The translations under genes were made by a program, and so were the position numbers. This document shows positions 9,459 through 43,252 of a DNA stretch of 56,666 bases, one piece after another; position 1 is the first letter of the stretch, and each line of letters starts with the position of its first letter. The notes under the pieces were generated by a model. The model was not told the DNA's origin, did no database searches, and worked only from the letters and a program-made list of their open reading frames with translations. The stretch lies in the sequence record SRR20825019_320; one strand, given 5' to 3'.

Positions 9459-9482
9459 TTATTTATTAATTTTTTATATGGC

Positions 9483-13333
<3,851 letters not shown>

Positions 13334-13383: not shown

Positions 13384-15333
13384 TCATTCTCCTACATAAT
13401 CAGCAGCTTTTTCAGTAGCCTTTTCACCCATTTTATCAGCAGATTCTTCAAGTTTTTCTTTAGATTTAGATGAGACATCCTCTGCTTGCTTTGAATCATC
13501 AGGTCCAGATGATGAATCTTTTGCTTCTATTTCAGTTGATGCAACTTTATTTTTCATTTGATCCATTAATCCTTTTACAGCGCTAAGAGGATTTTGTACA
13601 ACAGATCCTAATAGTGGACCTTCTGTAACATCAGATGCAAACTGGTTAATAGCAGAAGAGAAGTAAAAAATTATTAATCCTACTATCATAGCGTATAATA
13701 GATTAATGGATATTTTTTTATCATCACGAACATAATTTAACTGAAATAGTAAGAAGTTACGTTCATCCCAAAAATTATCAGTAAAATAATGTAGTAATTT
13801 TACTCCAAGACTATCAAGGCATTTATCTTGATTCGTTACTGGTGCTGAAATTTCAAAAGTTTTATATTCTTCTTTTTGAACTGGATGAAATTCACAATTT
13901 CCGTATATGGAGCTATCATATATAGTAAGAGCAAAACTAGTAAATCCTACTACAATAGCAGGCTGCAGAGCGCAAGATAAACATATTTTAAGCCAAGATT
14001 TAAAATTTTCTTTAGTGTAGCTAAATAAAGAAAATGTTATGAATATTGGTGAAATATAAGCCATGGCATATAGGGTAAGAAGGCAAACTAAATAAGTAGA
14101 AATAAAATGAACAATCATTGTGAATAAAAATAATGAAAAAATTATTCCGTAAGCAAATAATAATATATTTGCATCTATCAATAATATACCTACTAAAACT
14201 TTAAAAAACCTAAGAGGATAGGGAGCATTTCCAAATATAGAAGAGTTTAAATTTCCAATACCCATATTATCAGATATTTCAGGAAGATTTACACCTAAAT
14301 ATGTAAAGAATCTACAATCGATTGAATCCCATAATGCATAGTGAGAATATTTAGGTTCATAATCTTTTTTGTTAAATGAACATAATCCTTTTGAGCCGCT
14401 TGAATTAAATACTATATGAGCAAATTGGTTAATTGCGGATTTAAAAAATGGAAGGCCAAATTCTGTAAATCCGTTATGTTGATCTATGTTGTTTTTATTA
14501 AAAAATTTAAATCCAGATCCAACTCCAAAATAGGCAACTAATATTATTTTAATAGCAAATAATGTAAATGTGGATAAATTTCCATTTGCTGGGTTCATAA
14601 TTAAGTTTAGTCCAAATATTATTGTATAAATACAAAGAGCAGCAAAAACTGCGTTTTTAAGGTATTTTTGAAATCTTGGAAATGAAGTTAAAAAATGATG
14701 CTTGGTTTTACCATGACAAATTTTATCTTCAAAAAATACTCTATCTAGAGATTCAGTCACGCAATCAATTAGTCTTCCTGAAAAATGAATATTAGTCTTA
14801 CTTTTATTTGTATCAAAATAGCATGATTTAGCTTGGATCTTACATGATGTATCTTTTAATTCATCTAATTCTTCTTCTTGAGGAGATATAATTTTTTTAC
14901 ATAAAATTGGTGCCATACCTTTTGGAGTGGGTAAAGAGATGCATAAAGTTTTATAAAAAAATTCATCTACATGAAGTTCTGTATTTTTTAACGTAGGGTA
15001 TTTTGTGAGTGTATTTTGATCAAGATATGAACTAATATTTACTATACTACCTTTGTTTAAGGTGATTTCTGTATATTCATTACTAGCTTCATTTTTTCTA
15101 ATACAAATATTAAGTTCATCATTAAAGTTTTTACATTTTTGCCTCCCGTCTTTAAGGGTGTTTTTCATATCTATATGTTCAAGCACTAAATTATAAATAG
15201 TGTTTTTTGAAGCATATTGATAAATTCCAGTTACAGGTAGGGTGTCGCAAGTTTCTCCTTTTTGAGCATATGATGGATTTGATATTAATATATACATCAA
15301 CAAAGTTTTTATAATAAAGAAAAATTTTTTCAT
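13384..15333 (-). CDS. virB6: Type IV secretion VirB6/TrbL family protein (rvhB6 paralog 2)
   Basis: Signal-peptide-like N-terminus, Cys-rich region, LWDSIDCR, multi-TM core with FKSWLK...LQP; ATGA overlap with upstream virB6. Confidence 0.9.
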   Translation of the reverse strand: MKKFFFIIKTLLMYILISNPSYAQKGETCDTLPVTGIYQYASKNTIYNLVLEHIDMKNTLKDGRQKCKNFNDELNICIRKNEASNEYTEITLNKGSIVNISSYLDQNTLTKYPTLKNTELHVDEFFYKTLCISLPTPKGMAPILCKKIISPQEEELDELKDTSCKIQAKSCYFDTNKSKTNIHFSGRLIDCVTESLDRVFFEDKICHGKTKHHFLTSFPRFQKYLKNAVFAALCIYTIIFGLNLIMNPANGNLSTFTLFAIKIILVAYFGVGSGFKFFNKNNIDQHNGFTEFGLPFFKSAINQFAHIVFNSSGSKGLCSFNKKDYEPKYSHYALWDSIDCRFFTYLGVNLPEISDNMGIGNLNSSIFGNAPYPLRFFKVLVGILLIDANILLFAYGIIFSLFLFTMIVHFISTYLVCLLTLYAMAYISPIFITFSLFSYTKENFKSWLKICLSCALQPAIVVGFTSFALTIYDSSIYGNCEFHPVQKEEYKTFEISAPVTNQDKCLDSLGVKLLHYFTDNFWDERNFLLFQLNYVRDDKKISINLLYAMIVGLIIFYFSSAINQFASDVTEGPLLGSVVQNPLSAVKGLMDQMKNKVASTEIEAKDSSSGPDDSKQAEDVSSKSKEKLEESADKMGEKATEKAADYVGE

Positions 15334-17963
15334 GAATTATTACCTTTATTATTATCAGTATTTTTGCTAATGTTATCTTGAACTTCGTTATTACTATTTT
15401 GTTTTTTATCGGCTTCTTTGAATTTGATTTGTGCTTTATCCTCTGTATCTTTATCTGAATTTTTGCTATCTTTTCCAGAATTTTGTTCAACTGATTTTTG
15501 TACAGATTCATTAACATTAGATACTGCATCTTTAGCCGCTTCTTTTGCTTCATTAGCTGCAGCTGCAGCAACATCAGCTGCTTCAAATACGGCTTCAGCG
15601 CTACCAGCTGTAAAATAATCAGCTGCAGCTCTGACAACTAGTTTCACTGCCGCATTTTTTACTTTATCAACGGCTTCAGCGGCTTGTTTTGTTGCTTGGT
15701 ATACAGATTGAGGTTTAATTGCCATACCATCAATAGCTACCCCTTCTACCATGTCTGCTGCAAATTTAGATAATTGAGTGCTAAAATGGTAAATCATATA
15801 AAGAATTATTATTGCAGTTATTAAGGCTAAAGTAAAATCTTTAATTTTTTCAATTGGAACGCTTATACTATTTTTAATAAATATGCCTGGATAGGACATA
15901 ATCGCATTTTGTATAGAATGTTCTTCAGCTTTATTTTTTAAATCATCAAAATCCTTTTTGCCCTTCTCAATATGAGTTGCTATTATGGAATTTAATGGGT
16001 TGTTTAGCATATAACCTAAACTATTTGTGCATCTTTTATATTCTGCATTAGTGTATTTTGTCGATTTTCTATTTGTGTCAATTAAGAATTGAAGCTTTGA
16101 ATTTTTATCTAATTTTGAAGTTGTATTTGATTTAAAAGGTCTTGAGATAAGATTAAGCGAGTTTTCTTCAAGTTTTTCATCAATTGCGTAAGCTTTGTAT
16201 TTACATGAATCATAAAATCCAAGATCATAAATAGCAAACATAGTCATCATAAATGAAGCTACAACCATAGGCTGTAATACAAATGATATAAGGAGTTTAA
16301 GCCAAGACTGGAAATATCCTTTTGTTACAGAGAATAGACTAAATGGTATAAATATAGGAGCAAGAGTTCCAAGTATTGCAATTGAGATCATGCATATTAT
16401 AAATGCATTTACCATATAAGCAGCTACTGATATTACTATTAAAGGATATGATAGAGTAAGTATTACTAGGGATAAATTAGTTGATAGAAAAGCAGCTATT
16501 ACTAATATAAAATATGGAGGGTATGATGCGCTAAATAATTGATTTATATTACCTTCTTTTAATTGCTGAAGTCTTACGAGTTTCTCTTGTTTAAAATCAG
16601 TCAGGAAATCAAGTCCGAGATAATGAGATATTCTGCAATCTAGTGAATCCCATAAGGAAAGGCTCTTATATCCTTCATCATATAATTCTTTATTAAATTT
16701 ACATAATCCTGATGATGTTGCATCCATTACCCAGCTTGCAAGTGTACTTGCTCCTTCAAACATTAATGGAAATGCAAATGAAATCATTCCATTATAGTTA
16801 TTATTTTTGAAGTTAATACCGATTGTGAAATATACAACTAATAGGAAATGAATAATTACCATTATTAATTCTGATTTCGGAGGTACATCTCCTTTTAGTA
16901 TGATTTTAAAACCAAATAAGATTATATATATTGTCAAAAAGCCAGTTACAGTTTTTTTCATGGCGTTATTGAATTTAAAAAAACTACTATCTTTGTAGCT
17001 TAGAGGAAATTTATATGAATCTTGGTGATTACAAACTCTTTTATCAACTAAGAGTCTAGTTATCATTTGATTTATACATTCAATTAAAGGTAGAGAAATT
17101 TGCATGAGGTTTTTAGAATTTGCTTTTGCTCTTGCGTAACAAGATCTTGTTCCTGTGCAATCAACTAAATCTAAATTTTTTAAGTAATTTTTCTCATTAT
17201 ATTCTTCAAGCTCATCTTCATCTGCTTTAAATTTTGAATATATGGAATATGGGTATGGTTCTTTTACAAATATGCAACCTGCATTAATACTTCCCCACCA
17301 TAAAGTTTTAGTGGAAACGCAGACCATATCTCTATCTCTAACTATTTCCCATGGAAAAATTGAAGTTCCATCAAAAAATACTCCACTCTCACCAATTTTT
17401 TTTGATATAAATTTTTCAGTAAAATCATTAGGATCAGGATGCCAAACTTCTTCAAGGCTTTTGTATAAGGCCTCTCCAGATTTTTTTTGCGCTATTAATG
17501 TTACTAATTCTTTTGCTATTTTTAAAGAGCTTTTAGCTTTTTCTTTTGCAAGTAGAAAATTGCTACATATTCCAAAGGAAATTTTTGGGTTTTCATAATC
17601 TGTATGTTTACTAAAATGACATTGGGAATTAAAAGGCGCCCCGTTATCTAGTTTGACTTTATTATCATTTATTCTAAGCCTTAAAAGTAAAAACTGGTAC
17701 ATTCCAGGAGAAATAAATGAAGCTATATAAGGTGAAGGGGTAGCAGAAGGAGCGCAAGTATGGGAGCCTTCTTTATAAAACATATTTCCTATTCCACCTG
17801 TTTCACAAGTAATATTCTTAAGTAATTCTTTTACAGATTCAATATCATCACCTATGTCGCTTTCTGAAGTTTTAGAGGGTTCTGAATATGCTATGTTTAT
17901 TTGAGATATAAATAGGGTTGTTGTGATTAGCAAAATTTTGACAAATTTGGCAATAGCAAACAT
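15330..17963 (-). CDS. virB6: Type IV secretion VirB6/TrbL family protein (rvhB6 paralog 1)
   Basis: LWDSLDCR, YFQSWLK...LQP multi-TM core directly after virB4; start set at MFAIAK (17963), which forms a TAATG overlap with the virB4 stop (ORF track extends to 18002). Confidence 0.9.
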   Translation of the reverse strand: MFAIAKFVKILLITTTLFISQINIAYSEPSKTSESDIGDDIESVKELLKNITCETGGIGNMFYKEGSHTCAPSATPSPYIASFISPGMYQFLLLRLRINDNKVKLDNGAPFNSQCHFSKHTDYENPKISFGICSNFLLAKEKAKSSLKIAKELVTLIAQKKSGEALYKSLEEVWHPDPNDFTEKFISKKIGESGVFFDGTSIFPWEIVRDRDMVCVSTKTLWWGSINAGCIFVKEPYPYSIYSKFKADEDELEEYNEKNYLKNLDLVDCTGTRSCYARAKANSKNLMQISLPLIECINQMITRLLVDKRVCNHQDSYKFPLSYKDSSFFKFNNAMKKTVTGFLTIYIILFGFKIILKGDVPPKSELIMVIIHFLLVVYFTIGINFKNNNYNGMISFAFPLMFEGASTLASWVMDATSSGLCKFNKELYDEGYKSLSLWDSLDCRISHYLGLDFLTDFKQEKLVRLQQLKEGNINQLFSASYPPYFILVIAAFLSTNLSLVILTLSYPLIVISVAAYMVNAFIICMISIAILGTLAPIFIPFSLFSVTKGYFQSWLKLLISFVLQPMVVASFMMTMFAIYDLGFYDSCKYKAYAIDEKLEENSLNLISRPFKSNTTSKLDKNSKLQFLIDTNRKSTKYTNAEYKRCTNSLGYMLNNPLNSIIATHIEKGKKDFDDLKNKAEEHSIQNAIMSYPGIFIKNSISVPIEKIKDFTLALITAIIILYMIYHFSTQLSKFAADMVEGVAIDGMAIKPQSVYQATKQAAEAVDKVKNAAVKLVVRAAADYFTAGSAEAVFEAADVAAAAANEAKEAAKDAVSNVNESVQKSVEQNSGKDSKNSDKDTEDKAQIKFKEADKKQNSNNEVQDNISKNTDNNKGNNS

Positions 17964-20377
17964 TATAACTCTTTTACTTTCTGATAGAATATTTGAAGCC
18001 ATTTTTCAGGGTCATCACCATATTCTGATCTTATTTTATCTAGTAATATAGAGGTTTCTGCTCTTCCTGATAATATATTAATTATATTATCCATTCCGCT
18101 TAAATTAACTCTTGCAATAATTGCATCTACTCCTTGTTTAATTAAAAAGAACCTACTTGATGGATCTGTAGTTTTAATTATATTATATTCCCTTTGGCTA
18201 AGCATAAAGGCGCTTGTATATATACTTGTAGCTTTTAAATTTGGTAGAAAAATTTGTGTTGCTGTTTGTTGTATTAAGGTGTCGCTAATTCGACTTTTAG
18301 CGGCATCTTCTACAGATTGTGTTGCAAAAATTACAAATGTATTTAGCTTTCTTAAGACTTTTAGCCAGTCTTTAATTTTTGGTGCAAATATTGGGTTATC
18401 AATAAGTGCCCATGCTTCATCAAGCACTATCATAGTAGGATAGCCATCAAGAGATAAATTGATTCTGTGAAATATATAATTTAAAGCAGGTCCAAGGCTT
18501 ACAGGATCTTTTAATAATTCTGCCATTTCAAAACCAAATATGCTACTAATAGATAGATCAGTTTCGTCAGTATCATTATCAAATATACATGCTCTTGAGC
18601 CATTAGAGTGCCACATTGAGATTCTTCCTGCAAGGGTTCCTGGCCCATCTATTCCAAGAAACGGAACAATATTTGATAGTTTTCTATCTTTTTTATCAAG
18701 TCTAAAATTACCATCAATAGCTATAGTTAACAGTTTAATGTCATCTGCAGTTAGAGTTTCTCCATTTGTTGTAACTAGTGATTTTAGCCATTCAAGTAAA
18801 AATGTTCTGTTTTCTCCTGTGTCTTCGAGCTGAAGGGGATTAAAGTTACATTTAGCTCCTGGATCTATAACTGTATATACCCCTCCAATAGCTCTTATAA
18901 ATATTTCTGCGCCTCTATCTTTATCAAAAAAATACATTCTAGGTTTGAATTTTTGTGCTTGCGCGCACAAGAAATTCATAAGTACTGTTTTACCAGCTCC
19001 TGTTGGTCCAATAATTAAGGTGTGACCCACATCTCTTACATGAAAGCTAAAGTAAAATGGAGTTTTTGAAGTAGTATCTAATATGGTAACAAATTCTCCC
19101 CAATGATTTCCATATTTTTTACCTGTAGGAAAATTGTGAAGGGAAGCATATCCAGCAAGATTTAAAGTATTTATTGTAGATTTTCTAACAATGAAACTAT
19201 TATTTCCTGGAAGTTGTCCCCAGTAGCATGGCTCCATATTTACAGTTTCTCTAACAGGTTGTATTCCGCAGTTAGAAAGTTCAACAGATGCTTGAGATAA
19301 AATATTTTCAAGTGATTTTAAGTTATTATCTATACATAATATTGTAAGGTGATGAGTTCCAAAACCTATTTCTCCGCTCATTGCCATATCAAGTGCTTGA
19401 GAAATTTCTGCAATTTGAGAAACAGCTTTATCTTCAGCTTGAATCATTCTGTTTTGTTGAAGTTGCATACTATTTATAGCAACTGTTCTGTTAGAAAAAT
19501 TGAAACTTTGTGAAATAATAAACTCAAAAGGCATGTGAAGAAATCTATCAAGAATTCCAGCATATGTAATGGGCCCATATTCTTTTACGCTAATAATGCC
19601 AGCATATTTTACTCCTAAAGGAGTTCTAGCTTCCATAGATTTATTGCCAAAAAACAATCTACTATTTGGAATATACTTGTCTATATCTATTTTTGGAAGA
19701 AGCATATTGGTTGAATAGCCGCAATTAGTAATAGTTCCTAGAAATTCAAGTAAACTGCATTTATATCCTTGTTTTGTATTTTCTATTCCTAGTATATAAG
19801 GAGAATAATCTTTAAATGTATTTATTATTCTAGATGTTATTTCAGCGAGATTATCAGACATTTCTTTCATATCAGTTTCAAAAGCATTTTTATCTGACTT
19901 TTGGGATAATTTTTTATAAAGATGTTCAAAGTAAGCAGCTCCTGCTTTATCTTGTTTATAAATTACTGATATATATAGTTCATTTTCGTATGATTCAAAT
20001 TTAGTATATTTTTCTTTCCATGTACTTCTTAAGTAGCTTGTAAAATCAGATCCTTGGGCAAGTCTTGGATCAATATTATATTCGTGATCTTTTGATAATA
20101 TTGGTTTTCTTTTTCTAAAAATATGAAAATATAAAGAAATATTTCCTGAAGAAAGATTTTTAAAAAGCAGATTTCTCATGTTTTTACGCATATTTAGATC
20201 ATCATCATCTGCAGTTTCAAAAGAAAAGCCTTTAAGTTTAATAACTTGAAGTAGGGAATTTTCTTTAGTTAGTATTGTATTATGATTCCAGTGGCATTTA
20301 TATGGTATAAAATCGCTTGCATGGATTTCTTGTTTAGCTTTATTTTCTTTAGAGGTACTTGTGTAAAAAAATTGCAT
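17963..20377 (-). CDS. virB4: Type IV secretion ATPase VirB4
   Basis: Walker A GPTGAGKT, FDKDRG, Walker B IVLDEAW, FATQS; between virB3 and virB6. Confidence 0.97.
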   Translation of the reverse strand: MQFFYTSTSKENKAKQEIHASDFIPYKCHWNHNTILTKENSLLQVIKLKGFSFETADDDDLNMRKNMRNLLFKNLSSGNISLYFHIFRKRKPILSKDHEYNIDPRLAQGSDFTSYLRSTWKEKYTKFESYENELYISVIYKQDKAGAAYFEHLYKKLSQKSDKNAFETDMKEMSDNLAEITSRIINTFKDYSPYILGIENTKQGYKCSLLEFLGTITNCGYSTNMLLPKIDIDKYIPNSRLFFGNKSMEARTPLGVKYAGIISVKEYGPITYAGILDRFLHMPFEFIISQSFNFSNRTVAINSMQLQQNRMIQAEDKAVSQIAEISQALDMAMSGEIGFGTHHLTILCIDNNLKSLENILSQASVELSNCGIQPVRETVNMEPCYWGQLPGNNSFIVRKSTINTLNLAGYASLHNFPTGKKYGNHWGEFVTILDTTSKTPFYFSFHVRDVGHTLIIGPTGAGKTVLMNFLCAQAQKFKPRMYFFDKDRGAEIFIRAIGGVYTVIDPGAKCNFNPLQLEDTGENRTFLLEWLKSLVTTNGETLTADDIKLLTIAIDGNFRLDKKDRKLSNIVPFLGIDGPGTLAGRISMWHSNGSRACIFDNDTDETDLSISSIFGFEMAELLKDPVSLGPALNYIFHRINLSLDGYPTMIVLDEAWALIDNPIFAPKIKDWLKVLRKLNTFVIFATQSVEDAAKSRISDTLIQQTATQIFLPNLKATSIYTSAFMLSQREYNIIKTTDPSSRFFLIKQGVDAIIARVNLSGMDNIINILSGRAETSILLDKIRSEYGDDPEKWLQIFYQKVKEL

Positions 20378-32357: not shown

Positions 32358-35300
32358 GTGTCAAAAGATTTTGTACATCTAAGGGTTCATAGCTCTTACT
32401 CAATGCTTGAGAGCACTATCAAGATTGATAATCTTGTTGGACTTGTTAAAAATAAGTTAATGCCTGCTGTTTCATTAACTGATAATGGAAATTTATATGG
32501 TGCTCTTGAATTTGCAATAGCTGCAAATAAAAATGGAGTAAAGCCTATCCATGGAGTAGTTATTAATATTAAATATGAATCTTTTGGAAAAGAATATTAT
32601 GCAGAATTATTGTTACTTGCTAAAAATAAACTGGGAATACAAAATTTATTTAAGCTCTCTAGTAAGTCATATTTAGAAAATGACAGGAGGGATTGCGAGC
32701 ATATTACGATAAAAGATTTAGAAATTTATCATGAAGGGCTTATAATATTATCAGGATATACTGGTGGTATTATAGGTCAGTTATTGCTTCAATCTAATTA
32801 TGACGAGGCAAAAAAGCAGGCAAATTATTTTAAAAACTTGCTAGGTTCTAGATATTATATGGAGATTAGTAGGCATGGTTATGAAAAGGAAAAAGCAATT
32901 GAAGCTAGTTATACTAAACTCGCAAGTGAGTTATCAATTGCTTTAGTTGCTACTAATCATGTGTTATTTGATACAATAGAAATGCATGAAGCGCATGATG
33001 TTCTATTATGTATTGCTGATGCTGTTCCAAGATCTGAAAAAAATAGAAAAACAGTAAGTAATCAATGTTATTTAAAATCTTCTGAGGAAATGGAAGAATT
33101 ATTTAGTGACATTCCTGAAGCTATTGATAATACTATACATATAGCGAAAAGATGTTCATTTATGCTTGAAACATCAAAGCCAGTACTGCCTAACTTTTCT
33201 CAAGGAAATCAAGATGAAGATGATATATTAAGAAATGAGGCTCATTTAGGTCTTGAAAAAAGACTTGATGTAAAATTAAAAAACGAAAATATTTCAGATG
33301 ATGATGCTGTTAAAATAAAAAAAGAATATTTAGAAAGATTAGAATATGAATTAGATATTATATGTTCTATGAAATTTTCTGGATATTTTTTAATAGTATC
33401 TGATTTTATTAAATGGAGTAAAAATAGCCAAATTACTGTTGGGCCTGGAAGAGGTTCTGGAGCTGGTTCTGTTGTTGCTTGGAGTCTTTTAATCACTGAT
33501 TTGGATCCTATAAAATTTGGTTTACTATTTGAGAGATTTTTAAATCCTGAAAGAGTATCTATGCCTGATTTTGATATAGATTTTTGTCAGGAAAAAAGAG
33601 AGCAAGTAATTGATTATGTAAGGCTTAAATACGGAAAAGAGAGGGTTGCAAACATCATAACTTTCGGGAAATTACAAGCTAAAGCAGTAATTAAAGATGT
33701 TGCTAGGGTTTTAGGTCTTGGATATAGTTATGCTAATTATTTAACTGAGCTTGTACCTTTTAATGCCGTGAATCCTGTAACATTAAAGCAAGCAGTAGAG
33801 GAGATACCTGAGCTTGCTTCGGCTCTTAAAGGTGGTGGGATTAAGAATTTAAGTGGTGAGAATGAGTTAATTGCTCAGGTTTTAAATACAGCTTTAATAC
33901 TTGAAGGTTTACATAGGCATGTATCTGTGCATGCTGCTGGAATAGTAATTTCAGGAGAAAAGCTTGATAAGTTGTTACCTTTATATAAAGATAAAAATTC
34001 TGATATCCAAATTATTCAATATTCTATGAAGTATGCAGAGCTTGCAGGACTTGTAAAGTTCGACTTCTTAGGTTTGCAGACACTGACTTTAATATCAAAA
34101 TGTGTAGAATTAATTAAAAATATGGGGTTTGAGCTTGATATTAATGATGTAAATCTTTCAGATGGAGCAACTTTTAGGATGCTTTCTGATGGAAATTCTA
34201 CAGGTGTGTTTCAGTTTGAAAGTGCTGGTATGAAAGATACTCTTAGAAAATTAAAGCCTGATTGTATTGGAGATTTGGTTGCTCTTGGAGCTTTATACCG
34301 TCCTGGTCCTATGGAGAATATTCCTACATATGTTGCATGTAAACATAAGTTGCAGGAACCAGAATATTTGCATCCTCTATTAAAAGATGTACTTAAAGAA
34401 ACTTATGGGGTCATAGTATACCAAGAACAGGTAATGGAGATAGCTAAGATTTTAGCTGGATATACTCTCGGTGCGTCAGATTTATTAAGGCGCGCTATGG
34501 GTAAAAAGAACAAGCTTGAAATGAAAGAGCAGGAAAATATATTTATTTCAGGTTCTAAACAAAATGGAATAGATAGTAATCAAGCTAAGAAAATATTTGA
34601 CTCTGTTGCAAAATTTGCAGGTTATGGTTTTAATAAGTCTCATGCAGTTGCATATGCGATGATATCTTATCAGACTGCATATCTTAAAGCTAATTATTTG
34701 ATAGAATTTTTGGTAACTAACCTAAATTTAGAGATAGATGATAGTGATAAGATATTAATGTTTGTAAAGGATGCACTTGAGAATGGTATTAAAATTTTAA
34801 AGCCAGATATTAATCAGTCTGAAGGTGGTTTTACATTTAATAAAGCTGAATCTTCTATTACTTTTGGAGTAGGAGCTATAAAAAATGTAACATCAAGTCT
34901 TGGTGGGTATTTAAAGAATGAAAGAAATGTAAGAGGAAAATTTAAATCTATTTTAGATTTTATTAAAAGAGTGCAGCCTCATCTTATCAATAAAAGGGCC
35001 CTTGAAAATCTTATTAAAGCAGGATGTTTTGATAGTTTGCATAATAATAGGAATCAATTAATTCAGTCAGTTCAGAGAATAATTTCTTTTGGTCAGACTT
35101 TTCATCAAGAGAAAGATTCTAATCAATTTAGTTTTAATATAGATACATCTTCAAATGTCCTTGTAGAGGAATTAAAAGATTATGATGATAAAACTATTTC
35201 TATGCATGAGATGGAGGTAACTAATATTTTTTTGTCAGGTCATCCTTCTATGCATTATGAAGAATTTTTCAATGATTTAGGAATAAGTACAATAAGTAAG

Positions 35301-35801
35301 ATTAAATCAGATGAGAATTTAACTAATGGGAGGGTTAAACTATTTGGTGTTGTACATAAGAAAGATACAAGGATGTCTCAGCGAGGTAGGTTTGTTACTA
35401 TTGTTATGTCGTCTGGTCAAGATTATTTTGAGGTGGTTGTATATAATGATAATTCACTTAAGAAATATGGGCATTTGATTAATGCAAAGGAGATATTAGT
35501 TGCAACATGTGATGTAATTAAAGATGAAGGAGGAATGAGGTTTGTAGGTCATGAATTTGAAAGAATTGATGATGCAATGCTTAAAAATGATCGTTATTTG
35601 CTTTTAAAGCCTAAAGGAAAACATGGGCTACATGCAATTCTTGAATTTATAAAACCAAAACTAGAAAGAGACTATCCAAATATTAGGATTGATTTAGAAG
35701 TGCCAATCTCTTTAAAATTTAATGTAAAACTTGACTTGAATAAGGAGATAAATCTTACTTATGATGAAGTTAAGAACCTGAAAGAACTTTGCCAGAAATA
35801 A
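32358..35801 (+). CDS. dnaE: DNA polymerase III alpha subunit (GTG start)
   Basis: FVHLRVHSSYS PHP domain, GPGRGSGAGS, MPDFDIDF, KFDFLGL, YGFNKSHA. Confidence 0.98.
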   Translation: MSKDFVHLRVHSSYSMLESTIKIDNLVGLVKNKLMPAVSLTDNGNLYGALEFAIAANKNGVKPIHGVVINIKYESFGKEYYAELLLLAKNKLGIQNLFKLSSKSYLENDRRDCEHITIKDLEIYHEGLIILSGYTGGIIGQLLLQSNYDEAKKQANYFKNLLGSRYYMEISRHGYEKEKAIEASYTKLASELSIALVATNHVLFDTIEMHEAHDVLLCIADAVPRSEKNRKTVSNQCYLKSSEEMEELFSDIPEAIDNTIHIAKRCSFMLETSKPVLPNFSQGNQDEDDILRNEAHLGLEKRLDVKLKNENISDDDAVKIKKEYLERLEYELDIICSMKFSGYFLIVSDFIKWSKNSQITVGPGRGSGAGSVVAWSLLITDLDPIKFGLLFERFLNPERVSMPDFDIDFCQEKREQVIDYVRLKYGKERVANIITFGKLQAKAVIKDVARVLGLGYSYANYLTELVPFNAVNPVTLKQAVEEIPELASALKGGGIKNLSGENELIAQVLNTALILEGLHRHVSVHAAGIVISGEKLDKLLPLYKDKNSDIQIIQYSMKYAELAGLVKFDFLGLQTLTLISKCVELIKNMGFELDINDVNLSDGATFRMLSDGNSTGVFQFESAGMKDTLRKLKPDCIGDLVALGALYRPGPMENIPTYVACKHKLQEPEYLHPLLKDVLKETYGVIVYQEQVMEIAKILAGYTLGASDLLRRAMGKKNKLEMKEQENIFISGSKQNGIDSNQAKKIFDSVAKFAGYGFNKSHAVAYAMISYQTAYLKANYLIEFLVTNLNLEIDDSDKILMFVKDALENGIKILKPDINQSEGGFTFNKAESSITFGVGAIKNVTSSLGGYLKNERNVRGKFKSILDFIKRVQPHLINKRALENLIKAGCFDSLHNNRNQLIQSVQRIISFGQTFHQEKDSNQFSFNIDTSSNVLVEELKDYDDKTISMHEMEVTNIFLSGHPSMHYEEFFNDLGISTISKIKSDENLTNGRVKLFGVVHKKDTRMSQRGRFVTIVMSSGQDYFEVVVYNDNSLKKYGHLINAKEILVATCDVIKDEGGMRFVGHEFERIDDAMLKNDRYLLLKPKGKHGLHAILEFIKPKLERDYPNIRIDLEVPISLKFNVKLDLNKEINLTYDEVKNLKELCQK

Positions 35802-35918
35802 ATTTGGTAAGTTTATATCTATAGAAAATTTCTATACCAATAAAAGAATCTCCAATGAAGACCTATTGATACATTAAATTATATGCTATATTTTATATTA
35901 ATTTTAGATCAAGAGTGA

Positions 35919-38900
35919 ATGGGCAAGTTAAATTTTGTATGGAATGAATTAAGATTTGCAAAGAATCTAATTAATACAAGTCTTTATGAAGAGTATAGAG
36001 AGAAGATAGGTAGTCTTTTTGAAGATAAGAATATATCTACAGAGAAATTACATACAAAGAAGCATTTTCTTATGTCCTTTCGACTTGATAAGAAGATTAG
36101 AGCTATATGTACTCAAGATAAGAATATTCTAATAATTATAGATATATTAACTTCGCATAAATATGATAAAGTGCTAGATATTAATTCTAGTAAGATAGCA
36201 GAAGAAACTAGAAATGAGTTGGATGATTTATCAGAAGATGAAGAGGAGTTAAGTGAGAAGATTTTAGAATATGAAAGTAAAGAATTTTTAAATAGTAGAT
36301 CAAATTTTTTAGTATTAGATAAAGTACAATCAGGAATAGTTGAGGATGTAATATCTTTGAGTAAGCCATCAAGTATAATAGTTAATGGAGTTGCTGGTTC
36401 TGGTAAGACAACAATAGCTGAGTCGATAATAAATCATACTAAACTAAACCATACAAAGTTTGCTCAAACTAATTCCATGAATTTATTATATATATGTAAA
36501 TCATCAAGGCTTATTAGTATGATGAAGAATGTATATTCTTTGGGAGAAGAGTTTACTGGGCTAGATTTTATTACAAGTAATGAGTTATATAAGGGGGAGA
36601 TATTTAATTATGATATATTTTTAGATTGGGTTAATAGTAATTATGCTAGGGAGAAATTTAGTGATGATTTAAGGAAATATATAGAAGAAAATCAAGATAA
36701 TCTTGAAGATATAAGTAAAATATTGACTGAATTATATTCAGGTATATCAAAATCTCTCAAGGGAGGAGCAAATAAAGAAATAAAGAGAGAATTATTAAAA
36801 GAATTATTATTTCAATATCTAGATGATAAGATATGTGAACTAAAAACATTTGAGAGATGGATAGAATTTACTAAACAAAGAAGGCTAAGTAAATATAAAT
36901 ATCTTAAGGGTATTAGTAAGGAGGAAGTTAAATATATTTATGAAGATATAATTAAGTATAAGGAGCAGGCTGAAGAATTAGAAGGAACAAGCAAAGGATT
37001 AAGCAAAGATTTAGGTAAAAAAGTCTCATACGGTATTTTGGGTAGTGAAGAATTATCAGATATATTAAATGAATATGTTAATTATCTAAAAAATAGTAAA
37101 AAATTTGATTTTAGGCTAGGAGTAAATAAAGCAACAATGTTTTTTGATAGCAAGAAAAAAGAACAAGTTTTTCACAAGGGATTAGAAAATAATAGTAACA
37201 AAAATTATACATATATCTTAATAGATGAGAGTCAAGATTTAAGCCAGAGTGAGTTAATTGATATAAGGTCATATTTAAAGAAGGATGGTACTATCATATA
37301 TTTAATGGATAGTAATCAAACAATTGAGGATACATTTAGTAGGACCCAGCACAATGTTAGTGTTGCAGAGTCTTGTTATAGTGATAGATCAGTTTTATTA
37401 TATAATTTAGATTCTTCATATAGGAATGCAGAGATAATAGCAAGATTTGCAACAAGGCTTATACATTTAAAGTCTTACTTGGTAGGTGGTAAGTTAAATA
37501 AATATGAAGGAATGAGTGATATAGATAGTTTACCTACATCACAAAGGAAAAGTGGAGAAGTGAGGTGGATATATTGTGATCAAAAGGATAAAAAAACAAT
37601 TGAGAATATAGAAGCATTAAAGCATAATGCTAGATCTATAATGGATTGCTGCGTAGTAATACCTGATGAGGATCTTAGGTTAGATGCTGAAACAGATTTC
37701 CCTGGTGCATTAGTTTTAACTCCGTCACAAATTAAGGGATTAGAATATAATCAGATTATATTATACAAATTTATTTCAGGTGAATATGAAGCTAATATAC
37801 TAAAAAGTCAATCAGCAATAGAGAAATATAAGGCGGGCCAGGAGGTTCCTAGGAATTTTCCTAGTGATAAGAGTAGCGCAAAATATACAATTTTACTAAA
37901 TAAATTATTTGTTGGAGCAACTAGGGCGATGGTAAGTTTGGTGGTATATGAAACTAAAGCTAATGATAAGGGGAATTCGCTAATAGAAAAATATGAATCT
38001 ATATTTGAGGGTATAATTGATAGTAAAGGTATAAGAGTTTTAGAGAGAGCGTCATTAAATGAGATAATTGCTAAAATAGAGCTGCTAGGTAGTCAATTAG
38101 ATAGTGAAATATTAATTAAATATTTTAATTTAGCTTATACTAAATTAGATGAAGAGAAGTATGCAGAAGAGAATTTAAAGCTAAGAGATTTAACTAATTT
38201 TGAGAAAGTAATTAAAACTTTATGTGAAAGCAGAATAGATAGTATTAGATTTAAGGAAATTATTAAAAAAGTTGAAGAAGAGATATCTAAATTATCTAAA
38301 ATAATATTTGGGGTAAATGCTTTTGTTAGGAACGAGGAATATGAAATAGTACAAGAAGGGGAAAGGGTTACTGAAATTAGAACTAATACCCATAAAAATC
38401 AAAATACTAACTTTAGTAGTATAAGTAAGAATAGTGTAAGTAATAATAATTTATCTAAAGGATCTAGTAAAAAAAATAATAGGTCTATGGATACTATGCA
38501 AGAAAAAAAAGATAGTAAAAAGAATCTTAAAATAAGCCTTCAAGACAATCGTAAGTTTAAAATAATTATGGATATAATTAGAAGGTTATATAATGATCAG
38601 GATTATGATAAGGCTGCAGATTATGTTAATGAGCCAAAAAATAAAATTTTAATAGAAAAAAATCTTGAATTAATAGATCCTAGTGAGGTTAATTCATTAT
38701 TAGATTATCATGATATAGGGATAATTCAATTTTTATTAGGTGGGTATAAAAAAGCTCTTGAGAGTTTTGAACTTGTAAAAGAAATGCACAGTAATAATAG
38801 AAGCAGTGAATTTAATATTGGATTTTGCTATTATCAACTTGGGATGCATAAGAAAGCTATAGAGAAGTTTATTCTTTGTGAGGAGCGTTCTTATAAATAT

Positions 38901-41690
38901 CTAATGGATTCTTATGGTGAATTAGGTATGCATGAAAAACATATAAAGCTTTGTAAAAAGTATATTGATAAAAATCCTGATGATTATAGGTTGCATACTG
39001 AAATGGGTGATTGTCTTTTTGTTATCGAGAAATATGATGAAGCAAGTAAAAGTTATAATAAATCATTTATTATTAAAAATACATCTAATGCTATTTGGGG
39101 TATTACAAAATGTTATTTTTTATCAGAAAAATATCAAGAGTCATATGATATTTTGTTACAAATGAAGTATGAGTATTTATCAGGTTCTAAGACAATATTA
39201 GGACTTAATGAGCAATATATATATTTAAGTTCTTTGTATTTGTTTGCTTTAAGAAAATATGATTATGTTATTGATATATCTAAAGAGTTAATAAGCACTG
39301 GATACAGGTTAGGTACTTCATTCTATATACTTGGAATATCATATAAAATGATAGGAAATTATAAGGAGTCTAAGAAATATTTAGAAAAAGCTGCAAAAGA
39401 AGGTTTTAGAGTTAATCTTTTTAATTTGCATAAAGGTCTAATACTCAGAAAAGAAATGAGTAGTTATTTATCAAATCAAATGTCAGGTGTAAAAGATACT
39501 TCTATTATAGATATTTATGCTAAATATTGTGTAAGTTATACAAAAACAATTATAGAAAATTTTGAAACTCAAGCTGCGATATCTTTACTACCTGACTTGA
39601 ATTTTAATTTAGGATTATGTTATTTGTGTGAAGGGCGTTTTAAGCTAGCAGGTCAAAGTTTTATGAAGGAGCTTGATATTAATCCTAAGCATAACAATAG
39701 TAACTTAATGGAGGAATATATTGACAAATTTTTGATAAGTGAGAAAATTTCTTTTGATGAGTGCTATGATCAAGTAATTAAGGAGGCTTTAAGCATACAA
39801 GAACATATTACTGGTTTTAATCATAAAGGTATAATTTTTAATTTAAAAGATATGTTTATTATATGGCAAGATTTGATTAAATTATTAGATTCAAAACCTA
39901 TTTTACTTAGTGAGAATTTTGAAATAGGTAATATGTTTTATGATTTATCAATGTATAGGGAAGCATTATTATTTTATAGAAAAGATCAAGAATGTCTAAA
40001 AGTTAAGGAGAAACTAGCTATATGTTATAAGGATTTAAAAAGTTATCAAGAAGCAATAAATATTTTTAATGAAATATTATCTGTAAAGAAAGATACGTTA
40101 TCATTGAACTGGCATATTGGTCATTGCTATGAGCTTTTAAAGCAATATAATAAGGCTATTAGTAGTTATAAAAAAGAGTTAGATATATATCCTAAATGCG
40201 GTGATAGTCATTATCAAATAGGATATTGTCAAATGATTTTGGGTAGTCACGAAAGAGCAAAGGAGTCATTTATTAAAGCTAGAAATTGTAATCCAACGTA
40301 TGAAGATTCCAAGGAAAATATAAAATTATGTAAAAAACTACATGTTAAAACTCAAAAAGCTATAAAACTTCTTGAAGATGGGCAATTTGAAAATGCAAGT
40401 AATGTCCTTGAGGAAGTATTATCACTACATCCAGAAAATTTAAGTGCACTCAATATACTAATTATATGTATGCAAGAGCTCAAGCTTTATAAGAGAGGGC
40501 ATGATTATGCAACTCAAGCTATTGAAATATTTCCTTCATATTGGGCATATTATATGAATGATGGAGAGTTTCTTAAAGAAATGTTTGAAAAAGAAGGTGC
40601 ATTAGTACAAGAGAATGCAATTGAACAATTTAAAAAAGCACTAGAGATAAATCCCAAAGCAGAGGGTGCTTATTATAAACTTGCTGAATGCTATCAAGGT
40701 CGAGATGACAAAAAGGCAAAAGAATATTATGAACTATCAATTAAATCGGGTTATAGAGAGTTAGAGTCTTTATATAATGTTGGCGTACTTTATACATATA
40801 TTGATCAAAATATTCCTAAAGATTTTAAAAAGTCTATTGAGTATTTTAATAAAGTAATAAATATAGACCCAGAATATAAATCAGCCTATCTTATGAAGGG
40901 TATCAGCTCTCAAGAGATAGGATTATATGAACAGGCTCTTTTATGTTTTAATAAATATAAACAAATTACAGGTATTAATTGTGATAAGGACTTAAAGAGT
41001 TATTATTTCATTGGTATACCTAGTTTAGAATATCTTAGAGGTATCTGTTTTAAAAAACTAGGTAGATATAAGGAAGCAATAGAGAGCTTTGAGAATATAC
41101 CTGAAGATATGCTAATTTTTGATGATAATGAGAACCCAACTTCAATATGTTATTATCGAGGAGAATGCTATGAGGCACTTGGTGAATATGAAAATGCGAT
41201 AGAAAGTTATAAGTGTATGCATGAAGATTATTGCATACCTAATGATAATAAATATAAGATATCCATATTTTATAAACTTGGGGAGTGTTATGAAAAAATA
41301 GGTAAATATAACGAAGCAATTAAAAGTTATGAATTTCAGATATTAAAACGTAAGACTGATATACCTGGATTAGAAAATAAGATGGTACAAATATATGATA
41401 GAATAGGTAAGGTTAAAGAAGCAATTAATTTATATGCTGAGATATTAAAATCAAATCCAAGTCAAAAACATCTTGAGAGTATAAAAAAATTATTATTATG
41501 TAATTTATCTAATAAAATAAGTGATTCTAATAGCAGATATTTCATAAAAAATTCTGAAGAAATTAGTAAAACGAGTAACATAGTTGATGATGATACTGAG
41601 CAGCAATATAACAAAGAAGCAATGGGTGAGCATAATATTGAAACTGCAGGAAGTATTAGTAACTATCAAGATGATTCTAGTACTATTTAA
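35919..41690 (+). CDS. Large SF1 (UvrD-like) helicase / TPR-array protein with RelE-like N-terminus
   Basis: Walker A GVAGSGKT (36387-36410), Walker B LIDESQD (37218-37238), MDSNQ, SSYRN, IKGLEY, LFVGATRA; many TPRs from about 38700 onward. Confidence 0.85.
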   Translation: MGKLNFVWNELRFAKNLINTSLYEEYREKIGSLFEDKNISTEKLHTKKHFLMSFRLDKKIRAICTQDKNILIIIDILTSHKYDKVLDINSSKIAEETRNELDDLSEDEEELSEKILEYESKEFLNSRSNFLVLDKVQSGIVEDVISLSKPSSIIVNGVAGSGKTTIAESIINHTKLNHTKFAQTNSMNLLYICKSSRLISMMKNVYSLGEEFTGLDFITSNELYKGEIFNYDIFLDWVNSNYAREKFSDDLRKYIEENQDNLEDISKILTELYSGISKSLKGGANKEIKRELLKELLFQYLDDKICELKTFERWIEFTKQRRLSKYKYLKGISKEEVKYIYEDIIKYKEQAEELEGTSKGLSKDLGKKVSYGILGSEELSDILNEYVNYLKNSKKFDFRLGVNKATMFFDSKKKEQVFHKGLENNSNKNYTYILIDESQDLSQSELIDIRSYLKKDGTIIYLMDSNQTIEDTFSRTQHNVSVAESCYSDRSVLLYNLDSSYRNAEIIARFATRLIHLKSYLVGGKLNKYEGMSDIDSLPTSQRKSGEVRWIYCDQKDKKTIENIEALKHNARSIMDCCVVIPDEDLRLDAETDFPGALVLTPSQIKGLEYNQIILYKFISGEYEANILKSQSAIEKYKAGQEVPRNFPSDKSSAKYTILLNKLFVGATRAMVSLVVYETKANDKGNSLIEKYESIFEGIIDSKGIRVLERASLNEIIAKIELLGSQLDSEILIKYFNLAYTKLDEEKYAEENLKLRDLTNFEKVIKTLCESRIDSIRFKEIIKKVEEEISKLSKIIFGVNAFVRNEEYEIVQEGERVTEIRTNTHKNQNTNFSSISKNSVSNNNLSKGSSKKNNRSMDTMQEKKDSKKNLKISLQDNRKFKIIMDIIRRLYNDQDYDKAADYVNEPKNKILIEKNLELIDPSEVNSLLDYHDIGIIQFLLGGYKKALESFELVKEMHSNNRSSEFNIGFCYYQLGMHKKAIEKFILCEERSYKYLMDSYGELGMHEKHIKLCKKYIDKNPDDYRLHTEMGDCLFVIEKYDEASKSYNKSFIIKNTSNAIWGITKCYFLSEKYQESYDILLQMKYEYLSGSKTILGLNEQYIYLSSLYLFALRKYDYVIDISKELISTGYRLGTSFYILGISYKMIGNYKESKKYLEKAAKEGFRVNLFNLHKGLILRKEMSSYLSNQMSGVKDTSIIDIYAKYCVSYTKTIIENFETQAAISLLPDLNFNLGLCYLCEGRFKLAGQSFMKELDINPKHNNSNLMEEYIDKFLISEKISFDECYDQVIKEALSIQEHITGFNHKGIIFNLKDMFIIWQDLIKLLDSKPILLSENFEIGNMFYDLSMYREALLFYRKDQECLKVKEKLAICYKDLKSYQEAINIFNEILSVKKDTLSLNWHIGHCYELLKQYNKAISSYKKELDIYPKCGDSHYQIGYCQMILGSHERAKESFIKARNCNPTYEDSKENIKLCKKLHVKTQKAIKLLEDGQFENASNVLEEVLSLHPENLSALNILIICMQELKLYKRGHDYATQAIEIFPSYWAYYMNDGEFLKEMFEKEGALVQENAIEQFKKALEINPKAEGAYYKLAECYQGRDDKKAKEYYELSIKSGYRELESLYNVGVLYTYIDQNIPKDFKKSIEYFNKVINIDPEYKSAYLMKGISSQEIGLYEQALLCFNKYKQITGINCDKDLKSYYFIGIPSLEYLRGICFKKLGRYKEAIESFENIPEDMLIFDDNENPTSICYYRGECYEALGEYENAIESYKCMHEDYCIPNDNKYKISIFYKLGECYEKIGKYNEAIKSYEFQILKRKTDIPGLENKMVQIYDRIGKVKEAINLYAEILKSNPSQKHLESIKKLLLCNLSNKISDSNSRYFIKNSEEISKTSNIVDDDTEQQYNKEAMGEHNIETAGSISNYQDDSSTI

Positions 41691-41965
41691 TAAACACTTG
41701 TTAAGTAGAGAATTTATTTTAACATATTTATATCTTTTGCTATTTAAAATTTTCAGTACTAGTAGTTTATATAGAATTGATTGTAAAATGTATTAAGATT
41801 TATACATGAGAAAGTAATATTTTTTGTGTAAGTTATTAAATTTTTATACTATTTTTTAGTAGATTTTTGAAATAAAATTTCAAACTGATTTAAATTTAAT
41901 AGCTAATTTTTTATGGGCATTGTCCATTTTTTCAGCTTTCCTAATTGGTAAATATATAATCTTTC

Positions 41966-43252
41966 TTATTGATATTTATTTAGAGATCTTGATTTAAAAT
42001 TTAATATTCTATTTTCTAGCTCACTTCTAAAATGTTTTATAAGCCCTTGTATGGGCCATGCTGCTGCATCTCCAAGAGCGCAGATAGTATTTCCTTCTAC
42101 CTGATAAGAAATCTCAAGTAAATTATCAATATCACTAATTGATGCATTTCCGTCTACAAGTCTATTCATAATTCTCCACATCCAGCCAGTTCCTTCTCTA
42201 CAAGGAGTGCATTGCCCGCAAGATTCATGCATATAAAATTTTGATAAAAGACCAATTGCTTGTATTATGTCTGTTGAATTATCCATAACTATAATAGCAC
42301 CTGTTCCTAAACTAGTACCTAGAGATTTCAAGCTGTCAAAATCCATTAGAGCATCATCACATAGTTTTTTTGGCATAAGTGGTACAGAAGAGCCTCCTGG
42401 AATAACAGCTTTAAGGTTTTCCCATCCTCCTCTTACACCTCCTGCATATTTTTCAATTAGATATTTTAGTGGTATGCCTAATTCTTCTTCTACATTGCAG
42501 GGATTATTTACATGTCCAGAGATTGAAAATATTTTTGTTCCACAGCTATTTGTAGTACCTAATGAATTGAACCATTTAGCTCCTCTTTTTAAAATTGTGG
42601 GGATTACTGCTATAGATTCAATATTATTAATAGTTGTAGGGCATCCATATAAACCTTTATTAGCTGGAAAAGGAGGTTTTAGTCTAGGTAAACCTTTATC
42701 TCCTTCAAGGCTGCTTAATAAAGCTGTTTCTTCTCCGCAAATATACGCACCTGCACCTCTATGAAGTATAATATCAATATTATTTTTGCTATTTAATATA
42801 TTTTTACCTAGATATTTTCTATTGTAGCACTCGTCTATAGCATTTTTGAGAATTTCATATTCTTTATGAAATTCTCCTCTGATATATATATAGCAAGTAT
42901 TCACATTAAGTGCATAGCTTCCAATAATCGCTCCTTCTATAATTTTGTATGGTTCATAGGTAATAATATCTCTATCCTTGCATGTACCTGGTTCAGACTC
43001 ATCTGCATTAATTACTAGGTATGATGGAATACTAGAATTTTGAGGCATAAATGACCATTTAACCCCAGTTGGGAAACCTGCTCCTCCTCTTCCTCGTAAA
43101 CCTGAATCTTTTACTTCTTGAATGATTTTTTCTTTAGATAGAGTTAATATATTTTTTAAATCTTTAAAATCACCTACTTCTTCTGCATATTTTAAGTTTG
43201 CAGCTTTTTTATTGATTAAGTTATTAAATATTAGGTTTTTTTTATCAATCAT
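41966..43252 (-). CDS. nuoF: NADH-quinone oxidoreductase subunit F
   Basis: [47 protein letters not shown]. Confidence 0.98.

Follow-up and report, generated by a model that had tools for sequence, protein, structure and literature searches.

Toxins of the RelE/YoeB type have been described as parts of small modules of two genes. In Cami1, where a CARF sensor associated with CRISPR is joined to a RelE-like RNase that depends on the ribosome, such a domain provides the output of CRISPR signalling. Four residues of E. coli YoeB are essential: Glu46, described as the general base; His83, the general acid; Arg65, which stabilises the transition state; and Tyr84, which orients the mRNA (PMC3814384). 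Here we report a gene encoding a single protein of 1923 residues, in which a domain of this superfamily is predicted to precede a superfamily 1 (SF1) helicase and a long tetratricopeptide repeat (TPR) array. The gene is located in sequence record SRR20825019_320, of which the whole 56,666-nucleotide stretch analysed is hereafter called the window (Table 1).

The open reading frame (ORF) is intact, with zero internal stops. It spans 5.8 kb at 27% G+C and is therefore far longer than expected by chance, and the choice of ATG start is supported by the alignment with the homologue P0003, which begins at residue 7. A first-pass annotation made from the DNA letters alone had described a tripartite giant protein and quoted a series of short motifs from it. 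Each of these occurs exactly once and in the order given: TEKLH (residues 41-45), MSFRLDKKIRAIC (52-64), and IIDILTSHKYD (73-83) in the N-terminal domain; GVAGSGKT (157-164), LIDESQD (434-440), MDSNQ (463-467), SSYRN (499-503), IKGLEY (605-610), and GATRA (666-670) in the helicase; and NIETAG (1906-1911) in the C-terminal tail.

The boldest call of the annotation was a RelE-like N-terminus, on which a sequence profile, a predicted structure, and two structural searches now agree. A profile built from 34 family N-termini (A2) and searched against PDB sequences matched four YoeB chains: 7v6w_F (E 1.4e-4), 7v5y_E (1.5e-4), 7bwf_A (7.9e-4), and 6l8e_E (1.2e-3). In the alignment with S. aureus YoeB, the E-K-L, Y-S-x-R-x-N, and R-L-L-F blocks of the family fall on FEKL, YSRRIN, and HRVVY, respectively. 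AlphaFold2, supplied with an alignment of the N-domain, returned a model with a predicted local distance difference test (pLDDT) score of 81.4 and a predicted template modelling (pTM) score of 0.71. In this model a strand and two helices are combined with an antiparallel four-stranded sheet (strands 10-13, 41-44, 51-55, 61-67, and 70-77; helices 15-18 and 21-35). When this model was compared with the PDB using Foldseek, the top rows were YoeB, RelE, YafQ, and H. pylori RelE-like toxins (HP0894 included), with E-values from 1.7e-3 (YoeB), a probability of ~1.00, and template modelling (TM) scores of 0.5-0.6. The leading VIA-align matches were HigB1 (7awk; Z 7.7, root-mean-square deviation (rmsd) 2.9, 85 residues aligned), YoeB (7v6w_E; Z 7.6, rmsd 2.8, 74 aligned), Cami1 (8phj_X; Z 7.5, rmsd 3.5, 88 aligned), and RelE (3bpq_B; Z 7.4, rmsd 2.8, 75 aligned). 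Judged by title, 47 of the 50 VIA rows (Z 5.5-7.7) are RelE/ParE/HigB/YoeB/YafQ/BrnT toxin-antitoxin entries, two are Cami1, and one is Txp40.

Several results pull against this assignment. Pfam gives at most a chance-level match to residues 1-140, and a phmmer search of PDB sequences with residues 1-860 alone had no match below E 0.4; the YoeB sequence match is reached by the family profile only, single-sequence searches being blank. Foldseek returned zero PDB matches to the N-domain at E ≤ 0.001, and every VIA Z lies below 8, a range that alone can reflect a common arrangement. We nevertheless accept the RelE/YoeB fold because the VIA match list is uniform and is joined by an independent sequence-profile match. 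Residues 1-90 are accordingly assigned, from profile and model, to the YoeB/RelE superfamily at both the fold and the sequence level.

The candidate active-site residues of this domain are Glu42, Arg55, Arg61, His80, and Tyr82. Alignment of 55 sequences shows family-wide conservation of the first ~90 residues, with Arg61 and His80 invariant and Tyr82 near-invariant. When the N-domains of 144 relatives were aligned to the profile, position 61 was Arg and position 80 His in every sequence, position 82 was Tyr in 141, and position 55 was Arg or Lys in 138. Judged from these counts, an Arg/His/Tyr set like that of YoeB is strictly selected in the family. The putative general-base position, 42, fits less well, with Glu or Asp in only 108 of the 144 and Lys in 30. 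By way of the S. aureus YoeB alignment, we infer that Glu42, Arg61, His80, and Tyr82 correspond to Glu46, Arg65, His83, and Tyr84 of the E. coli enzyme, a mapping that is indirect because the E. coli chain scored E = 1.

A domain of this fold could instead have a different activity, such as ParE-like topoisomerase poisoning or ribosome-independent cleavage of DNA or RNA, and could be directed at DNA together with the helicase. ParE toxins share the fold and are found among the VIA matches (6xrw, 6x0a, 5czf, and 7r5a), the nearest structures to the helicase are DNA helicases, and DNA cleavage has been reported for an Agrobacterium YoeB (bioRxiv 10.1101/795211). We regard this as improbable. The sequence profile selects YoeB and not ParE, the ParE rows have Z of 5.5-6.8 versus 7.0-7.7 for YoeB, RelE, HigB, and YafQ, and the conserved His and Tyr, placed where the sheet ends C-terminally, make up a YoeB-type catalytic pair.

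The second module resembles the SF1A helicases UvrD, Rep, PcrA, and HelD. Its landmarks are Gln137 of the Q motif, Walker A (157-164), motif II (434-440), Gln467 of motif III, Arg502, Gly607 and Glu609, and Arg669. Gln137, Gly157, Gly160, Gly162, and Lys163 are invariant across the 55 sequences, and Asp436, Glu437, Gln467, Arg502, Gly607, Glu609, and Arg669 are each at least 90% conserved. The Pfam model AAA_19 matches with 27.2 bits (cut-off 25.1), and UvrD-helicase, SLFN-g3_helicase, and Viral_helicase1 fall just under their cut-offs. Compared with the PDB using Foldseek, a model of residues 1-860 (pLDDT 76.2, pTM 0.75) had 136 matches at E ≤ 0.001. HelD bound to RNA polymerase ranked first (1.6e-11), followed by UvrD (2.3e-11), PcrA (1.3e-10), FBH1, and Rep (1.7e-9), with the RNA helicase Upf1 (6.2e-9) and IGHMBP2 slightly lower, so that the substrate may be DNA or RNA. 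A search of the ESM Atlas returned generic UvrD-like clusters only. Between Walker A and motif II lies a helical insert of ~200 residues (~220-420), whose family-specific near-invariant residues in the same alignment are Trp314, Glu343, and Tyr386. The NTPase is thus predicted to be an SF1 UvrD-like motor on two RecA-like domains with all motifs intact. The annotation had called it an SF1 helicase in place of a STAND ATPase, and both the motif conservation and the structural matches bear this out. Per-domain Foldseek comparison, which it had suggested as a check, likewise led from the N-domain to YoeB/RelE toxins and from the helicase to HelD, UvrD, PcrA, and Rep.

The acidic linker that the annotation placed after the N-domain is also present; 11 of its 31 residues are Glu, and it is helical at low confidence in the 860-residue model. 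This helix-prone acidic segment adjoins a basic RNase-fold domain (isoelectric point (pI) 9.3 for residues 1-90), and it might serve as a built-in, antitoxin-like mask of that domain. Beyond the helicase, a helical stalk is alignable with the relative P0002 as far as residue 757. It leads into an N/S/K-rich stretch (residues ~800-865, with 12 Asn and 9 Ser in 66 residues), which occupies about 38316-38513, close to the 38380-38540 given earlier. AlphaFold2 pLDDT is below 50 over residues 796-860, and the linker is predicted to be disordered.

The remainder of the protein is largely a TPR or TPR-like solenoid, as anticipated from the letters. Pfam matches include TPR_2 (E 7e-43), TPR_1 (E 6.3e-39), and TPR_12 (E 9e-32), and twelve TPR-type models score above cut-off (TPR_1, 2, 6, 7, 8, 11, 12, 14, 16, 17, and 19, and ANAPC3). 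Pfam and NCBIfam repeat matches together cover residues 873-1896. The polar, acidic tail that follows carries the NIETAG motif noted at the outset. Its HNIETAGS segment (window 41625-41651) resembles the HNLGDAGS that ends the nearest relative, P0002, and a pattern of this type was found in no other frame of the window and in none of the other 149 representatives. Many relatives bear a different tail feature: in 79 of 123 full-length relatives (P0002-P0151), a hydrophobic-Phe motif and then a polar residue are found 20-35 residues from the C-terminal end; matched internal control windows gave 41 ± 5, with a maximum of 54 in 200 draws. The motif is absent from the tail of the window protein. 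It could direct export, bind a clamp, or act in autoinhibition, the first of these being an assumption of ours.

The protein belongs to a large and apparently undescribed family. An exhaustive HMMER search of 1.84 billion representatives (clusters at 50% identity) returned at least 490 proteins with the helicase at E ≤ 1e-3, 219 at E ≤ 1e-10, and four at E ≤ 1e-30, the best match sharing 33% identity. In a word-based search, residues 1-860 had no match among proteins of 1057-3366 residues, and a profile search from the full-length alignment (A4) was swamped by unrelated ankyrin proteins and was not usable. The N-domain is present in 144 of the best 150 representatives of the at least 490 (141 at E < 1e-10); the other six are short or lack the N-terminus.

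What follows the helicase varies. A repeat census sampled every fourth protein (n = 38) and drew on 25 of the 44 matched Pfam families. Among the matches listed, Ank_2 was found in 17 of the 38 and TPR in one, the closest relative P0002, with no Pfam repeat in the remaining sampled members. Elsewhere in the family, P0213 carries Arm/HEAT repeats and P0225 TPRs. The arrays of the window protein and P0002 share generic TPR similarity only, at 22-27% identity. Ankyrin arrays are therefore the family norm and the window protein is an unusual TPR-bearing member; across the family, a conserved module of N-domain and helicase carries swapped repeat arrays. The annotation had singled out the gene as the best candidate for an undescribed system here. 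That it matches no known family holds, but it is not a one-off, being one of at least 490 clusters in which ankyrins are usual. The tabulation of homologues, repeat types, and neighbours that had been recommended yielded the counts above and no conserved neighbour.

Among relatives, named source organisms include a Rickettsia endosymbiont, Wolbachia pipientis, and Legionella brunensis. A search seeded with a Legionella protein gave 15 organism-named rows, namely 13 from Legionella (three of them L. brunensis paralogs), one from Tatlockia, and one from a gammaproteobacterial metagenome-assembled genome, a list that is biased because of its seed. Among 72,556 plasmids searched with tblastn, 127 records were positive: 99 from Shigella, 13 from Escherichia, nine from Piscirickettsia, two from Methylosinus, and one each from Polymorphobacter, Thermus, Deinococcus, and Cetobacterium. 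The same N-domain motifs recur in the genes from Shigella, Polymorphobacter, and Thermus. The copies on Thermus aquaticus pTA78 and on the Polymorphobacter plasmid adjoin insertion sequence (IS), Tn3, or toxin-antitoxin (TA) genes. Of 5426 complete E. coli genomes, 115 carry the Shigella-type gene; 106 of its locations are chromosomal and 10 are on plasmids. Two of these E. coli loci were inspected. Both are IS-rich islands, the first next to afa/dra adhesin genes and the second next to cdiBA, and one of the two copies is frameshifted. Each island also has, ~100 bp upstream of the homologue and pointing the same way, a ~177-residue ORF that matches no Pfam family; neither the Shigella plasmid copy nor the window gene is preceded by this ORF, which could be a lineage-specific partner.

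The Rickettsia endosymbiont of Polydrusus tereticollis encodes its homologue (ORF 7938-12416 of locus L002, 1-18244) among two DDE transposases, a PD-(D/E)XK transposase, TraD, an HD-domain gene, and a HATPase_c gene, a region that we take to resemble the cargo of a Rickettsiales amplified genetic element. Within the order of that endosymbiont, 5 of 301 genomes were positive with the 860-residue query; within its phylum, 14 of 401 were positive with the N-domain profile, 12 of them having open frames of ~940-1500 residues. No conserved neighbour was seen across the window, Shigella, Polymorphobacter, Thermus, and Rickettsia copies. The distribution of the family is thus patchy, mobile, and stand-alone.

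This spread bears on whether the protein is a housekeeping or repair accessory helicase that would engage stalled RNA polymerase or coupled transcription-translation complexes in the manner of HelD, UvrD, or Rep, with the YoeB-like domain as a ribosome or RNA adaptor and not a toxin. The best structural matches of the motor (HelD on RNA polymerase and UvrD/PcrA/Rep) would suit such a role, as would the position of the gene between dnaE and the nuo genes and the lack of mobile-element scars in the window. So patchy an occurrence, both in the endosymbiont's order and phylum and in E. coli, would not, and neither would the mobile contexts of other copies, the frameshift in one of them, or the variability of the arrays. 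Strict conservation of a catalytic-type Arg/His/Tyr set is also unexpected for a mere adaptor, and we consider a housekeeping role improbable.

We tentatively propose that the protein is a stand-alone, horizontally mobile intrabacterial conflict protein, composed of a YoeB-type RNase, a UvrD-like translocase, and a TPR solenoid for targeting or gating; this is the reading we favour, although we hold it with somewhat less than even confidence. Action inside the producing bacterium is favoured because complete members, ankyrin-bearing ones included, are found in Thermus, Polymorphobacter, and ordinary E. coli, because of the mobile contexts and the one E. coli pseudogene copy, and because the layout parallels that of effector-NTPase-repeat immune proteins. 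The role could be in defence, in addiction, or in competition between mobile elements.

The strongest competitor to this proposal is a translocated effector. In that case, in intracellular bacteria such as the present one, a type IV secretion system (T4SS) would deliver the protein into the host cell, the TPR array would dock onto a host protein, and the RNase and helicase would attack host mRNA, ribosomes, or nucleic acids. The window itself encodes VirB4 and two VirB6-like proteins of an rvh-type T4SS. The family is concentrated in Legionella, Rickettsia endosymbionts, Wolbachia, and Piscirickettsia, with named relatives also on Shigella plasmids, and its Ank, TPR, and Arm/HEAT arrays are repeat types often seen in effectors. 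The gene has neither an immunity nor an antitoxin gene beside it, and the tails are polar, many with the enriched Phe motif, which might signal export. Against this, the same architecture is found on the Thermus aquaticus and Polymorphobacter plasmids and, mostly on the chromosome, in E. coli, and to our knowledge neither Thermus, Polymorphobacter, nor such E. coli inject proteins of this kind. The Shigella copy has an E. coli-like G+C content of 51%, compared with 36% for the neighbouring type III secretion system effector gene ospG, and the window protein has no Phe motif in its tail. In a structural atlas covering 368 effectors of L. pneumophila, the words 'helicase', 'YoeB', and 'ParE' are absent from the main text (PMC11696984). 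We therefore place an effector role below an intrabacterial one, as possible but rather unlikely.

If the protein does act in intrabacterial conflict, the repeat array would bind a specific protein, for example one made by an invader or a cellular complex. ATP binding or hydrolysis by the helicase would then couple this binding to engagement of nucleic acid, and the coupling would release or position the N-terminal RNase. The RNase would cut mRNA, most likely ribosome-bound as with YoeB, and so shut down translation in the producing cell. The putative elements of this scheme are the RNase activity, its dependence on the ribosome, the gating role of the repeats, and where the protein acts. A more specific version, which we find doubtful, casts the protein as a helicase-based counterpart of NLR/Avs proteins and a bacterial analogue of the eukaryotic Schlafens: within one polypeptide, the variable Ank, TPR, or Arm solenoid would sense an invader protein, the helicase would pass on the signal, and the YoeB-type RNase would cut ribosome-bound mRNA and so abort the infection, with no antitoxin involved.

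Some observations sit poorly with the conflict proposal. None of 50,697 phage records contains a relative, hence there is no direct phage link. The host appears to be a small-genome, Rickettsiales-like bacterium with an rvh T4SS in the same window as the gene, which is flanked here by housekeeping genes with no recognisable defence island. The organism-named relatives of the Legionella query are all from Legionellaceae or an unnamed gammaproteobacterium, with at least three paralogs in L. brunensis, a pattern that suits secreted effectors. In PADLOC-DB 2.0.0 no family fits, and matches are at the level of the P-loop only: mad8 (E 2e-6) and GajB (E 3.2e-4 and 4.4e-3), both partial (residues 145-441 and 422-515).

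The novelty of the family lies in a RelE/YoeB RNase fold hard-wired to a motor and a swappable protein-binding array, in proteins that span Legionella, Rickettsia, Wolbachia, Shigella/E. coli, and Thermus. Should the RNase prove active and repeat-gated, it would represent a new, antitoxin-free control of a translation-targeting toxin, and the family could then be a single-gene immune system of a new kind or a new effector class directed at the host.

Table 1. Features of the 1923-residue protein gene, its neighbours in the window, and an ORF of the E. coli islands
Feature	Position (nt)	Strand	Remarks
Whole gene	35919..41690	+	1923 residues plus stop codon; ATG start
YoeB/RelE-superfamily domain	35919..36188	+	residues 1-90; profile, AlphaFold2, Foldseek, VIA, conservation
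Acidic linker	36192..36284	+	residues 92-122
SF1A (UvrD/Rep/PcrA/HelD-like) helicase core	36285..38018	+	residues ~123-700
Helical stalk	38019..38333	+	residues ~701-805; DSSP helices 713-804, pLDDT 50-84
Low-complexity N/S/K-rich linker	38334..38513	+	residues ~806-865
TPR / TPR-like solenoid	38514..41513	+	residues ~866-1865, about 1000 residues
Polar acidic C-terminal tail	41514..41687	+	residues 1866-1923, HNIETAGS; pI 4.05 (1880-1923)
ORF of 518 residues	3172-4728	+	no Pfam family at E ≤ 1e-5
VirB6/TrbL-like gene (large)	13384-15333	minus	after VirB4
VirB6/TrbL-like gene (large)	15330-18002	minus	after VirB4
VirB4 homologue	17963-20377	minus	rvh-type cluster
dnaE	32358-35801	+	upstream neighbour
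nuoF	41966-43252	minus	downstream neighbour
~177-residue ORF	L027 8422-8955; L028 8401-8937		E. coli islands

The gene stands alone between dnaE and nuoF, as the annotation had stated. The flanking gaps (35802-35918 and 41691-41965) contain zero ORFs of at least 25 residues wholly inside them, and a 70-residue frame (41584-41796) overlaps the 3' end of the gene. Upstream are ettA, a DUF2672 gene, bcp, and dnaE; downstream, nuoF is followed by nuoE, nuoD, and nuoC, all on the minus strand, and then by a porin gene and sucA. The window is AT-rich throughout (24-32% G+C in 2-kb bins), the giant gene having 27.1% G+C versus 30.8% for dnaE and 32.1% for nuoF. It also encodes ligA and ntrY/ntrX, and the region 13384-20377 (minus strand), with virB4 and the two virB6-like genes, is a Rickettsiales rvh-type type IV secretion cluster. 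Gene set and base composition point to a Rickettsiales-like alphaproteobacterium as the source. The 301 genomes of the endosymbiont's order include no close relative of it, since the best NuoF identity among them is only 69%.

No characterised family absorbed the protein, in keeping with the earlier view of it as undescribed. We found no account of a YoeB/RelE domain combined with an SF1 helicase and repeats in the literature, supplementary tables not being covered. Predicted-effector lists for non-pneumophila Legionella exist and could name these proteins. The passages concerned of PMC3482391 and PMC8195603 do not mention the architecture, and the main text of the L. pneumophila atlas is silent on it in the terms given above.

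The N-domain shares with YoeB/RelE toxins its fold, topology, profile match, and Arg/His/Tyr at positions that align with the YoeB catalytic blocks. Those toxins, however, are free proteins of ~85 residues with an adjacent antitoxin gene, whereas here the domain is the N-terminus of a 1923-residue protein; the adjacent H-Y of YoeB is H-x-Y in the giant proteins, and their general-base position varies. A type II TA module was rejected, as there is no small antitoxin gene in the flanking gaps and no conserved neighbour. Cami1, among the best structural matches, also has a RelE-fold RNase in cis with a sensor module, but its CARF sensor binds cyclic oligoadenylate, and it has neither helicase nor repeats.

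With UvrD, Rep, PcrA, and HelD the motor has in common two RecA-like domains, a Q motif, Walker A, DExQD, and motifs III-VI. It differs from them in its low identity (10-14%), its family-specific helical insert, and the RNase-fold domain and solenoid that flank it. GajB of Gabija and mad8 of MADS are likewise UvrD-like P-loop helicases; membership of either system was rejected on the weak, partial matches and on the absence of partner genes from the locus. Eukaryotic group III Schlafens offer a closer parallel in layout, with an endoribonuclease domain N-terminal to an SF1 helicase, and the Pfam model SLFN-g3_helicase matches 24 of the 38 sampled members (the window protein weakly, at E 1.1e-4 and below cut-off). 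Their RNase has the Schlafen core fold and not a RelE-type one, and the proteins described here are bacterial and have C-terminal repeats. What Schlafens do in eukaryotes is the basis of the functional comparison made above.

Avs/NLR-like STAND proteins have the same order of effector, NTPase, and repeat array, and in both cases the array varies between relatives. Their NTPase is a STAND ATPase, in contrast to the two-RecA SF1 helicase found here, and the NB-ARC, NPHP3_N, and nSTAND matches in Pfam are confined to the P-loop (residues ~148-183) and fall below cut-off. STAND/Avs membership was rejected given that the NTPase fold is that of an SF1 helicase and that no PADLOC Avs model matched. 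By analogy, the protein is most like a composite of described systems, in which a YoeB toxin would provide the output, a UvrD/HelD-type motor the engine, and an Avs/NLR-like receptor the logic.

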